The position numbers were made by a program, and so were the translations under genes. A stretch of DNA of 64,000 bases from a virus. Shown in pieces: positions 4,521 to 56,234 of this stretch (its first letter is position 1; each line of letters begins with the position of its first letter). The notes below the pieces were generated by a model. It ran no database searches and had not been told where the DNA came from. It worked only from the letters and a program-made list of their open reading frames with translations. The stretch covers positions 32,001-96,000 of the IMG/VR virus record IMGVR_UViG_3300029267_004179; one strand, 5' to 3'.

Positions 4521-4583
4521 AAAATAAAAAACTAATACCTATATATAGGGTAAAAATTTTATAGGCCTTAAAAGGGGAATAAG
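4521..4583 (+). repeat. dispersed intergenic element, copy 1
   Basis: AAAAACTAATACCTATA-TATAGGGTAAAAATTTTATAGG-CCTTAAAA; core 4544-4565. Confidence 0.95.
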
Positions 4584-4585
4584 AA

Positions 4586-5077
4586 GTGATTGACCCAAAG
4601 TTAAAAGGTAGAATTACAAGAAATGCAAATCGGTTTTCAAGAAACCTTGAATTGATGGCTTCCTTTGCAGAAAACAATGTGGAGCAAATCATCAGGAAGT
4701 CAGTTATTGATTTATTCGGAAAACTTGTAGAAAGAACACCTGTCGATACCGGTCATGCAAGAGCAAATTGGAATATTGACACCAAATTTGATCCTTCTTT
4801 GGTTACAAGAGTAGTTGCGTCAGATGTAAGAAAGTCAAGAAAAGCAGGAGCGGCAGGTAAATCAAACGAAGTAAAGTCAATTACAGCACAAAAGGCAAGA
4901 GAATTTGAATACAATATCGTGGATCAGGTTATAGTTATTTATAACAATGTCCCTTATATTGAAGCGTTGGAAAACGGCCATAGTAAACAAGCAGCGCAGG
5001 GATTTATAGCAATGACAGTAAAGGAGTTTTCAGATCAGTTTTCAGCGAATGCAAGGCAACTTGCAGGGGAAATATAA
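4586..5077 (+). CDS. HK97 gp10-like tail completion/neck protein
   Basis: TPVDTG.ARANW and NNVPYI..LE.GHS.QA..G motifs. Confidence 0.9.
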   Translation: MIDPKLKGRITRNANRFSRNLELMASFAENNVEQIIRKSVIDLFGKLVERTPVDTGHARANWNIDTKFDPSLVTRVVASDVRKSRKAGAAGKSNEVKSITAQKAREFEYNIVDQVIVIYNNVPYIEALENGHSKQAAQGFIAMTVKEFSDQFSANARQLAGEI

Positions 5078-5512
5078 ATGAATGTAGAAGATATCAGGGA
5101 AGCTTTCAATGGGTTTTTGAATGCGAATTGGACTAAAACTCCTATAGCATGGCCGAATAGGGATTTTGATATTGAAACTGATTCAAATTCAAAGGGGGAA
5201 TTCATCAGGGCTTTTACAAGACTTGGCAACGCCTATATCGGGGAGATAGGTGAGCGTACTACCGGAGCAGTCGGACATAGGTCAGGAATCTTTATGGTTT
5301 CTGTTTATGTTTTAAAGAATACGGGAACAAAGGTTGCTCTTGGATATGCTAAAGATTTGGAGGACTTGTTTAGAAGGGAAGACTTGAATCTTGTAGTAAA
5401 TGATAACTGCGGTTGTATCATAGATGAACCATACACTTATGAGATGGGGCCGGATGATCAGCACTACGGGGTTATGGTGGTTGTTCCTTTCAGCACGTTC
5501 ACTGGCGATTAA
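5078..5512 (+). CDS. tail terminator protein (DUF4128-like)
   Basis: TPIAWPN..F motif; lies between the gp10-like gene and the tail tube. Confidence 0.75.
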   Translation: MNVEDIREAFNGFLNANWTKTPIAWPNRDFDIETDSNSKGEFIRAFTRLGNAYIGEIGERTTGAVGHRSGIFMVSVYVLKNTGTKVALGYAKDLEDLFRREDLNLVVNDNCGCIIDEPYTYEMGPDDQHYGVMVVVPFSTFTGD

Positions 5513-5545
5513 CTTTTAACCTATTCTACCCATAGGAGGTACATT

Positions 5546-6940
5546 ATGGCTTCTTGTTCAGACATCGGAATTAGCAGGAAAAAGAAGGTGTTTGCCGTAA
5601 TTGAGAGTACTTGCGGCACACTTGAATTTCCGGCTACTACAGATGCGGTAATCCCTGCCGGTGATGCGATGATAAATCAAGTCCCGGCATTTGTTAACAG
5701 CGAAGAAATTGTTGACAGCCTTGATATTATGGATCAATTCCAGTCTGCAAATCCGCCCGGTACGTGGGAGGTTCCTATGTACTTGAGGCCGGATGCTACT
5801 CTTGGCAATGATCCACAAGGGGATGCCTTTTTTCAATCAATGCAGGGGAGTAAGAACCCTGCAACTACTTGTGCTGTTGATGATGTGGCTGGTGTTGCTA
5901 TCCCGGATACCACCATTGACTTTGACACATTGGCTGGTGGCAACCTGCCCGAAAGGGGAGTTATCACTCTTGGTGCTGAAAACATCCACTATACCGGTAT
6001 CACTTGGACTTCTTCTACTGCTGGAACCATTACTGGATGTACGAGAGGATATAACGGCACCGTGGCTGCGGCCCATCTCGATGGTGCTGCTATTACCCTT
6101 TCATCTGTTTTCTATAAACAAACCACCGATCCACCTGCATTTTCCTTGTGGATTGAATCAGATCATTTTATTCAGGGGCTTTCCGGTGCTACCGTTAACA
6201 CTGCCACACTTGCTATCTCAAATGAAGGTGCTACTATGATTACCTTTTCCGGTGAAGGTATGCAAATGGTATGGGCCGGTACGGATGAGCTTGCTGCAAA
6301 TGCTCTTGCTGCCCAAGCAGATATCGTTGTTGTCGAATCGAAGAAATATTCTCCAGGAGCAAGAATTTACAACTATACTACCGGTGATGATAATGCCGGT
6401 GCTGGCTTTGAAATTCTTTCCATCGACTATACCACCGATACCATCACCATGGGAACAAATGTTCCTGTTGGTGGTTGGACCCTTGCTGATGTTATTAAGG
6501 GTTTTCTACCTGCAGTTACGGAAGTTGGAAGTCCTATTGAATCAAGGTATACCGCAATTGACCTTGACGGTGTTGCCGGTGTTCTGCGGACAACCGACTT
6601 CAACTACTCTGTCCCGAAGCAGTATATCACTGATGAAGTGGGTATCACCTTTCCGCAGTCCTTTGTGCCGGATACACGGGATATAACTTCTTCAATGAAT
6701 ATCTACTTCAGACAGGCCGATGCCGCATATTTTTATGATGGCTTTCAGGGGAATGAAAAGGCTGTCGGGATTGCTTTTGGTGAGCAGACCGGCACCAATC
6801 GGCATTTTGACTTTTATCATCCAAGAGTCAAAATTCAAACCCCTGAAGTCTCTTCTGATGGACCTACCTTGGTGTTGACTATGGGTATGACTGCCCTTGG
6901 CACCAATGGTGAAGATTCTTTAGAGATTGGTGTTCATTAA
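5546..6940 (+). CDS. major tail tube protein with inserted accessory domains
   Basis: Strong RBS; position before chaperone and tape measure; tube-like C-terminus (P.VKI.TP.VS..GP....M...ALG). Confidence 0.8.
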   Translation: MASCSDIGISRKKKVFAVIESTCGTLEFPATTDAVIPAGDAMINQVPAFVNSEEIVDSLDIMDQFQSANPPGTWEVPMYLRPDATLGNDPQGDAFFQSMQGSKNPATTCAVDDVAGVAIPDTTIDFDTLAGGNLPERGVITLGAENIHYTGITWTSSTAGTITGCTRGYNGTVAAAHLDGAAITLSSVFYKQTTDPPAFSLWIESDHFIQGLSGATVNTATLAISNEGATMITFSGEGMQMVWAGTDELAANALAAQADIVVVESKKYSPGARIYNYTTGDDNAGAGFEILSIDYTTDTITMGTNVPVGGWTLADVIKGFLPAVTEVGSPIESRYTAIDLDGVAGVLRTTDFNYSVPKQYITDEVGITFPQSFVPDTRDITSSMNIYFRQADAAYFYDGFQGNEKAVGIAFGEQTGTNRHFDFYHPRVKIQTPEVSSDGPTLVLTMGMTALGTNGEDSLEIGVH

Positions 6941-6944
6941 TCGT

Positions 6945-54945: not shown

Positions 54946-54961
54946 CCATCATTGTGTCTAA

Positions 54962-54998
54962 TAAGGCCATTTGCCTATAATCGGGCAGATGGCCTTTT
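54962..54998 (+). terminator. hairpin/terminator after the SSB gene
   Basis: AAGGCCATTTGCC-TATAATCG-GGCAGATGGCCTT followed by TTAT. Confidence 0.7.
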
Positions 54999-55019
54999 AT
55001 TAACCAGAAAGAAGGAATC

Positions 55020-56120
55020 ATGACTGAAAGAGTTAAAAGAGCAAAAAAACAAGATGCCGAAGAAGAGAATATTGAAGAAGAGATCATGAACAAGGAGGTT
55101 AAGGACACAAGGCCTGTTGAGTTCATCCATTCAGGATCAACTATGCTTAATGAAGCATTATCTCAAAAGGCCAAAGGTGGTGGTTGGGCAAGAAACAGGA
55201 TACTCAATATCGTTGGTGACGGCTCAAGCGGTAAGACTATTCTTGCAATCCAGCTCTGCTATATTTGTTTCAAAACTCTGATGGTAACAAAGTCAAATAT
55301 ATTTCCTCCTGTTAAAAAACTCATCATTATTTACAACAATCCAGAAGCTGTTATGGACTTTCCACTTCAATCAATGTATGGTGAAGATTTTATTGATGCT
55401 GTGGAATGGCGCCATGATTCTACAGTAGAAGCAACAGGAAGGGATTATTTGAGAAGAGTTAAGGCCTTGAAAAAGGGTGAGGCTCTTATTTATGTTGTTG
55501 ATTCATGGGATGCTCTTGATAGTGAAGAAGAGTCAAAAGCATTTGATGAAGCGATAATGAAAGATGAGCAAATGGAAGGTAGCTATAACTTGGGCAAGCA
55601 GATGTTTGCTTCAAAGCTGTTCTTTAAAAAGTGCTGTGATGAGATGCTTGGCAAGGATGCTACTTTGTGTATCATATCACAAGTCAGGGACAGAATAGGT
55701 GTTTCATTTGGCAAGAAGAAATACAGAGCTGGCGGTAAAGCTTTGGACTTCTATACTCATCAGGTTTGTTGGCTGCGAGTTGTCAAGAAGGTCCCAAGAG
55801 TAGTGAGAGGAAGGGAAAGAATCTGGCGTGTTGAGATAGAAGGGCATGTTGAGCGGAATAAGACTGCCATTCCATATAGAAAGGCTACTTTTGGGATTGT
55901 GTTTGGATATGGCATTGATGATGTCTCATCGATGGTGGATTGGCTTTTTAAGAAAGGGCCATATATATTGCCAAGCATTGATAAGCCATATAAAGATCGG
56001 AAGTCTTTCATTCAACGTGTTTATGATGACAATCTTATAGCTGAACTTAGGGATGAAGTGGACAAAGAGGTAATGGAAGTTAACAAAGGTTTTGAGGTAG
56101 ATTGGAAACAAGAGTTTTAA
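55020..56120 (+). CDS. RecA/UvsX-like recombinase
   Basis: SGS..LN.AL.....GGW, G..SSGKT, VVDS..AL, ISQVRD.IG..FG......GGKAL.FY. Confidence 0.92.
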   Translation: MTERVKRAKKQDAEEENIEEEIMNKEVKDTRPVEFIHSGSTMLNEALSQKAKGGGWARNRILNIVGDGSSGKTILAIQLCYICFKTLMVTKSNIFPPVKKLIIIYNNPEAVMDFPLQSMYGEDFIDAVEWRHDSTVEATGRDYLRRVKALKKGEALIYVVDSWDALDSEEESKAFDEAIMKDEQMEGSYNLGKQMFASKLFFKKCCDEMLGKDATLCIISQVRDRIGVSFGKKKYRAGGKALDFYTHQVCWLRVVKKVPRVVRGRERIWRVEIEGHVERNKTAIPYRKATFGIVFGYGIDDVSSMVDWLFKKGPYILPSIDKPYKDRKSFIQRVYDDNLIAELRDEVDKEVMEVNKGFEVDWKQEF

Positions 56121-56159
56121 TTCTGCTTGTATTTTAAAAATACAGCCACCAGCATGCTC

Positions 56160-56234
56160 TATATTAAACGATCTAATAAAAACTAATATAAGGGTATAGG
56201 GTAAAAATTTTATAGGGGTTAAAAAGGAAATAAG
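56160..56234 (+). repeat. dispersed intergenic element, copy 7
   Basis: Core at 56195-56216; nearly identical to copy 2. Confidence 0.95.

Follow-up and report, generated by a model that had tools for sequence, protein, structure and literature searches.

The DNA examined here (the window) is a 64,000-nucleotide stretch of the virus record IMGVR_UViG_3300029267_004179, corresponding to bases 32001-96000 of a 104,019-bp genome that is rated complete and belongs to an uncultured phage. It carries a 22-bp sequence, TATAGGGTAAAAATTTTATAGG, that recurs letter for letter in the gaps between genes. Positions given below are those of the window unless they are marked as genomic. The genome encodes a tape-measure protein (a 2215-aa open reading frame [ORF]), a tail-tube protein (464 aa), a P22-type coat protein, a Mu-F-like head protein, a DnaE-type polymerase, helicases, and a primase, and its owner is a long-tailed phage. 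About 91% of the genome is coding, and nearly all genes run rightward, the exception being one leftward block at genome 56.7-63.4 kb. The ribosome-binding sites are strong and of the AGGAGG type, which suggests a Bacillota-like host; the phage probably infects a member of the Bacillota. Searches of a cultured-phage collection with the window DNA, with the sigma-like protein described below, and with a member of its sigma family yielded no match, and the DnaE-type polymerase found only distant matches there (30-35% identity). As judged from these comparisons, the phage is without a close cultured relative.

The 22-mer had been described in a preliminary description of this DNA as an intergenic element with seven exact copies in the window, and both the places and the strands hold: 4544(+), 14610(+), 23392(+), 31405(-), 36783(+), 44238(-), and 56195(+), with gaps of 10066, 8782, 8013, 5378, 7455, and 11957 bp between them. 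Scanning the whole genome raised the count to nine exact copies, the two outside the window lying at genome 18946(-) and 103928(-), and all nine are located in gaps between ORFs. The number expected by chance is 0, based on 100 dinucleotide-preserving shuffles. Copies with one to five mismatches do not occur anywhere in the genome, so the distribution is all-or-none, and no second dispersed repeat was found in the genome. The flanks attributed to the element, AAACTAATA-N6 on one side and NN-TTAAAA on the other, are present in all seven window copies. Indeed, the nine copies align in register over a conserved unit of 44 bp made of AAACTAATA, N6, the 22-mer, NN, and TTAAA, within which 36 positions are invariant. 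The N6 segment has three alleles, CCTATA (four of nine copies), TAAGGG (four of nine), and GTAGGG (one of nine), and the NN segment reads CC in seven copies and GG in two. Within the core, TATAGG occurs twice as a direct repeat at a distance of 16 bp, and there is an A5T4 tract.

The window copies are found in late, replication, and accessory surroundings. The copy at 4529..4572 (+), with an A-type upstream arm and N6 CCTATA, precedes a 163-aa gene, the first of the tail-tube and tape-measure block, whose GTG is located 20 nt past the 22-mer. The next, at 14595..14638 (+; B-type arm, N6 TAAGGG, NN GG), occupies the gap between the gene of the 2215-aa tape-measure protein and the next tail gene, with an ATG 13 nt past the 22-mer, and the copy at 23377..23420 (+; A-type arm, N6 TAAGGG) precedes a plus-strand block of three genes (142, 176, and 108 aa), the ATG following after 25 nt. 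The head of the leftward small-gene block (24702-31370) is occupied by the copy at 31398..31441 (-), in which N6 is GTAGGG, the upstream block reads TGAAAC, and the ATG lies 34 nt past the 22-mer. The copy at 36768..36811 (+; B-type arm, N6 CCTATA) carries the leader shared with other copies without a gene behind it and faces an AT-rich noncoding stretch, ahead of the hammerhead, AAA-ATPase, and sigma genes. At 44231..44274 (-), an antisense copy with N6 CCTATA and without the shared leader is located about 90 nt past the stop codon of the sigma gene and is aimed back through a long G+C-rich hairpin into that gene. Finally, the copy at 56180..56223 (+; B-type arm, N6 TAAGGG, NN GG) precedes a 5'-3' exonuclease gene that has its GTG 29 nt past the 22-mer and AGAGGA as its Shine-Dalgarno sequence. 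On the opposite strand, the A-type arm reads TGATAGAAT, an extended -10-like sequence of a possible divergent host-type promoter aimed away from the core, at genome 55361(-) (window 23361) and at genome 103980(+). A G-TGTAGAAT variant, which is without the extended -10 spacing, is present in two further copies, and the other arms do not conserve the signal; at the genome 18946 copy, the variant GTGTAGAAT is found 5 nt ahead of the first ATG of a 96-aa gene (genome 19009).

Six of the nine copies are co-oriented with the gene or RNA that comes next, and these six, and only these, continue past TTAAA into an A-rich Shine-Dalgarno leader resembling (A)GGAAATAAG. In its exact form, the 9-mer GGAAATAAG is present at four places in the genome, each of them a co-oriented copy, and one-base variants of it are found at the other two co-oriented copies. 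This shared leader contains a Shine-Dalgarno-like AAGGA/AGGGG, and a start codon follows 13-34 nt past the 22-mer in five of the six. Thus, five of nine copies have a co-oriented start within 40 nt, compared to 15.8% expected under random intergenic placement (P = 0.007, a value that is indicative only, since the copies are not independent events). The three opposed copies, at genome 18946(-), 76238(-) (window 44238), and 103928(-), are located at the 3' ends of rightward gene blocks.

The preliminary description had pointed out that one copy lies before a terminator and that one is antisense to transcription, and had argued from this that a single promoter class does not explain the element. 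Both observations are correct: a strong terminator-like hairpin followed by a T-run (36945..36975 [+]; eight pairs, six of them G-C, the hairpin itself spanning 36945-36965) starts 140 nt after the 36783 copy, and the 44238 copy is opposed to its flanking genes. The conclusion is not supported, as a terminated promoter gives a short RNA and an antisense promoter an antisense RNA, both of which are ordinary. With the terminator where it is, a transcript from the 36783 copy would measure about 165 nt, or the segment would be a regulated leader, neither of which contradicts a promoter; the 44238 copy would give rise to an RNA, short or antisense, that faces the 3' end of the sigma gene.

On balance, we infer that the element probably represents a promoter class belonging to the phage itself, and that copying of a small cassette has spread it through the genome. 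Its anatomy, with two blocks around a variable spacer, a shared Shine-Dalgarno leader, and co-oriented starts within 40 nt of five of the nine copies, is easier to reconcile with a promoter cassette than with a site for partition, packaging, or roadblocking. The upstream block AAACTAATA would act as a -35-type element, N6 plus TATA as the spacer, and GGGTAAAA (core positions 5-12) as a -10-type element; in the alignment, the invariant blocks flank the variable N6, with its three alleles, in a spacer-like manner (AAACTAATA, N6, TATA, GGGTAAAA). Since the -10-type block would occupy core positions 5-12, the usual offset of about 7-10 nt beyond it would place the start at the A/G of the second TATA|GG, around core positions 20-21, and the Shine-Dalgarno leader would stay in the transcript. 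Every transcript would open with G-G-NN-UUAAA, and those of the co-oriented six would then continue into the A-rich leader. In this scheme, the co-oriented copies would drive the tail, distal-tail, three-gene (142/176/108 aa), exonuclease, and leftward small-gene blocks together with a short RNA, and the three antisense copies would yield antisense or convergent transcripts, one of them aimed at the sigma gene itself. The reader would be host core RNA polymerase carrying the phage sigma-like protein (42876-44147), not the host housekeeping sigma.

The two blocks resemble the promoters of known alternative sigma factors. Counted from the sequence, their spacing is AAAC-N16-GGTA, and the spacing in SigW promoters is exactly N16. 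The 31405(-) copy reads TGAAAC, like the -35 element of extracytoplasmic function (ECF) sigma factors, and Bacillus ECF promoters display tgaAAC at -35 and CGTA/CGTC at -10, with 14- to 17-bp spacers (PMC5758882). In addition, GGGTAA agrees at five of six positions with the -10 consensus of SigB, the full consensus being GTTTAA-N15-GGGTAT with reported spacings of 13-17 (PMC9847131). A housekeeping sigma-70/SigA promoter was considered and rejected, as no sigma-70-type consensus match (TTGACA-17-TATAAT-like) overlaps any of the seven window copies. None of the hexamers of the 22-mer scores 5/6 to TATAAT; the best reach 4/6, each missing the key A or the key T. A sigma-54 promoter was set aside on account of the unfit spacing of GG and GC, and a MerR-type operator in the spacer on account of the CCTATATATAGG palindrome being present in only four of the nine copies.

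The candidate reader is a 423-aa protein encoded at 42876..44147 (+), with a Sigma70_r2 match above the Pfam cut-off. Exhaustive HMMER comparisons revealed a composite protein: residues 12-180 correspond, over their whole length, to one family of sigma-like proteins (about 185 aa) that stand alone, and residues 200-414 align with a different family, of proteins of 200-280 aa that are mostly free-standing. Just one further full-length fusion (P0002) turned up in a set of 1.8 billion representative proteins. Structure prediction for the N-terminal half (pLDDT 87) gave a fold that matches sigma domain 2 in complex with -10 DNA (Z 9.1, rmsd 1.7, 67 residues), and Foldseek returned sigma factors only, among the matches listed. 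The C-terminal half comprises a helical domain, lysine/alanine-rich linkers, and a lysine-rich tail of about 40 residues. On the strength of sequence and structure prediction, this protein is a candidate cognate sigma factor encoded by the phage, the fold of which does not establish recognition of the -35 block. A host-type promoter consensus match at 41256..41284 (+; TTTACT-17-TAAAAT, 9/12 positions, a consensus match only) precedes four genes ending with the sigma gene, and could be the source of the first sigma. No match to the T7-like RNA polymerase family (Pfam RNA_pol, PF00940) was obtained in the 104-kb genome, a weak negative because the control genomes were also silent, and the DFDGD-type polymerase catalytic motif is absent from all large ORFs. 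Similarly, Phage_integrase and Resolvase gave no match in the genome, in a search for which the positive controls worked. An alternative candidate binder, a 91-aa HTH_17/MerR-like protein, is encoded at 36449..36724 (+), just upstream of the 36783 copy. Nothing was retrieved when the sigma protein, P0002, and P0003 served as queries in locus searches, and the sigma-family profile gave a single partial match against 401 Lachnospiraceae genomes, which is uninformative on the host.

The preliminary description had proposed a genome-wide signal acting at the DNA level, and had named a host repetitive extragenic palindrome (REP) or miniature inverted-repeat transposable element (MITE) as the finding that would overturn it. 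Our searches support a phage-specific signal: across the genomes of 185,579 species, the 22-mer has one match, a single copy at 6798-6819 of the Lachnospiraceae metagenome-assembled contig CAJTDB010000028.1. That match shares bases with the stop codon of a 243-aa gene and is separated by 14 nt from the gene that comes next, in an ordinary, G+C-richer bacterial operon, and is probably a coincidence (the estimated chance expectation is 0.1-0.5). A host REP or MITE is thereby excluded as far as the collections reach. Collections of viral and metagenome contigs gave no match to the 22-mer, in scans that may leave out near-identical records.

The element was also compared with other viruses. The tail-tube protein is common to 56 viral contigs (38-52% identity), and the stretches around those tail-tube genes, up to 10 kb on each side, hold no comparable element. 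Both the sigma family and Sigma70_r2 are missing from five long structural relatives (three are complete genomes), and four whole relatives, including the three complete ones, have no comparable long dispersed repeat. Among the sigma-less structural relatives, G405 (IMGVR_UViG_3300029288_000007), a complete 91.7-kb genome of the same G+C content, contains seven co-oriented copies of GGGAGTATAAT (-; record positions 5992, 25674, 30201, 37346, 47468, 60329, and 66685), which have a canonical -10 and are each located 10-25 nt before a ribosome-binding site and ATG. By these features, the set is probably the dispersed promoter class of G405. The genomic habit is the same, one conserved promoter scattered through the genome, but the signal is of host type. 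A non-canonical signal paired with a phage sigma, and a canonical one paired with its absence, fits the proposed reader, with one genome of each kind.

The copies also bear possible traces of their own history. Three pairs are nearly identical, namely, genome 18946(-)/36544(+) (78 of 79 positions), 55392(+)/103928(-) (76 of 80), and 46610(+)/88195(+) (71 of 72), and the alleles of the upstream arm, N6, and NN occur in mixed combinations among the copies. Together with the geneless leader at 36783, this points to recent duplication or gene conversion of a promoter-plus-leader cassette. The sequences thus suggest that the cassette was recently copied within the genome, a process for which the PeSL cassettes of T4-type phages offer a precedent (PMC2839356, PMC4122927). 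A site-specific recombination site was considered separately and rejected: no recombinase was found, the arms around N6 are not inverted repeats, and CCTATA is present in four copies and not in two.

Several observations weigh against a promoter class read by the phage sigma. The invariance of 36 of 44 positions goes far beyond the need of any known sigma, so that something else, for instance recent copying or a second binder, must explain part of it. Three of the nine copies are antisense, lack the leader, and have no plausible ORF after them, and terminators are not seen ahead of the late-region copies. The copy nearest upstream of the sigma gene runs into the strong terminator, so that simple self-activation of that gene is not apparent. 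The second domain of the sigma-like protein, folded alone (pLDDT 86), shows no clear match to sigma domain 4: its best Z is 4.3, and sigma C-terminal domains score 3.5-4.0 against it, within noise. Furthermore, three viral contigs (G402-G404) that encode sigma-family homologues (28-31% identity) have no long dispersed repeat and no AAACT-N15/16-GGTAAA site, so the sigma family alone does not imply such a signal.

These points leave room for other explanations. The element could be a promoter read by the host holoenzyme, with a housekeeping or SigB-type stress sigma and the help of an activator from the phage, for which the 91-aa HTH protein is a candidate; the phage sigma would then be uninvolved. 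The agreement of GGGTAA with the SigB -10 element speaks for this, as do the use of canonical TATAAT at similar dispersed sites by the sigma-less G405, the end of the HTH_17/MerR-like gene 44 nt before the conserved block of one copy, and the fact that we infer, rather than observe, the link between phage sigma and element. We find it doubtful, because the invariant region is without a 5/6 match to TATAAT and no sigma-70-type match overlaps the copies, because the block upstream of GGGTAA attains at most 3/6 to the SigB -35 element GTTTAA, and only at a 12-nt spacing (13-17 being reported), and because the phage bears the cost of encoding its own sigma. Alternatively, the element could be where a phage DNA-binding protein docks to form a roadblock, insulator, or nucleoid organizer, much as the preliminary description proposed. 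In favor of this, 36 invariant positions are more than a promoter needs, the core contains the TATAGG repeat and the A5T4 tract, and each of the three antisense copies falls precisely where a rightward gene block ends. Candidate binders are the HTH protein and, through its C-terminal half with an extra domain family and a lysine-rich tail, the sigma-like protein. Such a site is nonetheless unlikely: no protein, including the nearby HTH_17 protein, has a positive link to it, a docking site needs neither a shared Shine-Dalgarno leader nor a fixed short distance to the start codon, and, unlike in the temperate phages that use stoperators, no integrase or resolvase was found in the genome. A more speculative view, likewise quite improbable, combines the two functions, with the 44-bp unit as the docking site of a sigma and linker-histone-like fusion, which would make it a promoter and, at the antisense copies, also a polar barrier insulating transcription units. 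Sigma domain 2 would read GGGTAAAA, the C-terminal module (helical domain and lysine-rich tail) would read or coat AAATTTTATAGG-NN-TTAAA, and one antisense barrier would feed back on the sigma gene itself.

Two further accounts concern copying of the DNA and a role in RNA. It may be chiefly a substrate for recombination or copying, through duplication or gene conversion, that shuffles modules as PeSL do, promoter activity being secondary or absent. The three near-identical pairs, which extend over 72-80 bp, the mixed combinations of arm, N6, and NN alleles, the leader without a gene at 36783, the position of every copy at a module border, and the PeSL precedent are all in line with this. However, PeSL cassettes are themselves promoters, so that this account overlaps the phage promoter class and does not replace it; moreover, no recombinase was detected in the genome, terminal inverted repeats or target duplications are not evident in the aligned flanks, and the 22-mer is missing from the searched viral and metagenome contigs (near-identical records may be left out). 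As the chief role of the element, we hold copying to be quite unlikely. It is highly improbable that the element works at the RNA level, whether to mark a processing site, to enhance translation, or to form a structured leader in long read-through transcripts. Such a function would suit the late-region copies, which lie in tight gaps with no preceding terminator and include the ribosome-binding region of the next gene, and hammerhead ribozymes do cut an operon transcript in the same genome. Against this, the consensus fold reaches no more than -1.9 kcal/mol, and its eight weak pairs are invariant and show no covariation; Rfam families cover no copy, matching only the two hammerheads elsewhere in the window; and three of the nine copies lie on the noncoding strand. 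A structured RNA or ribozyme at the copies was rejected on the same grounds of weak fold, lack of covarying pairs, and lack of an Rfam match.

Other features of the genome deserve mention. The two type II hammerhead ribozymes, at 38714-38777 and 39658-39721 (+), score 59.4 and 49.4 bits, over the Rfam gathering threshold, and both are located within the operon after the 36783 copy. Around the terminator at 36945-36965, directly after the helicase and primase genes, a very AT-rich noncoding stretch of about 250 bp (36870-37130) could be a replication origin or control region. Where the leftward small-gene block and the replication genes diverge, tandem purine-rich repeats of 12-13 nt (AAAAAAGAAGAA and relatives) occupy 31634-31750, overlapping in part a 63-aa lysine/glutamate-rich ORF. 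Three tRNA genes (Pro-TGG, Trp-CCA, and Glu-TTC) are located near the right end of the genome, at about 99.3-101.7 kb.

If the element is indeed a phage promoter class with its own sigma, the two would constitute a ready-made, highly specific promoter and sigma pair from an uncultured phage, and a first handle on the transcription program of a family of tailed phages of 80-100 kb that is known only from metagenomes. Moreover, the letter-perfect and antisense copies, with one facing the sigma gene, would provide a compact test case for phage feedback wiring and module insulation.

The closest likeness is to the promoter classes read by phage sigma factors, such as those of SPO1 (gp28 and gp33/34) and those of phiEco32 and phage 7-11 (gp36, PMC4331800), in which a non-canonical motif stands in multiple copies before gene blocks. 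Here too, the phage encodes a sigma-family protein, and an RNA polymerase of its own was not found. The present element differs from these in that 36 of its 44 positions are invariant, degenerate copies are absent, and one third of the copies are antisense; furthermore, its sigma belongs to an uncharacterized, metagenome-only family and is fused in frame to a lysine-rich, DNA-binding-like half, and the connection between sigma and motif is a putative one. With the ECF and SigB promoters of Bacillota (PMC5758882, PMC9847131), the element shares the two blocks, AAAC and GGTA separated by 16 nt, TGAAAC in one copy, GGGTAA at 5/6, and a variable sequence in between, but neither consensus is matched in both blocks, conservation extends about 20 bp past the -10 block, and the sigma has no recognizable domain 4. 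PeSL cassettes resemble it as promoter-containing repeats at module borders, with a mosaic among copies that suggests recombination (PMC2839356, PMC4122927); they rely on host sigma-70 early promoters, whereas the cassette described here lacks a stem-loop terminator. T7-type promoters likewise measure about 22 bp, recur many times without a letter changed, and have TATA immediately ahead of GG at the predicted start, although no T7-like polymerase was detected here (the controls being silent too) and the specificity-region positions would include the variable N6. The stoperators of Cluster A mycobacteriophages are also asymmetric sites scattered genome-wide through intergenic DNA. They are short (13-14 bp) and numerous (at least 20 per genome), follow the direction of transcription, and serve as binding sites for the immunity repressor of a temperate phage. 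The element studied here instead consists of nine copies of a 44-bp unit, in a genome in which neither an integrase or recombinase nor a repressor was identified. Repeated phage promoter cassettes are thus already known, and the element is most likely a further example of this type of signal.

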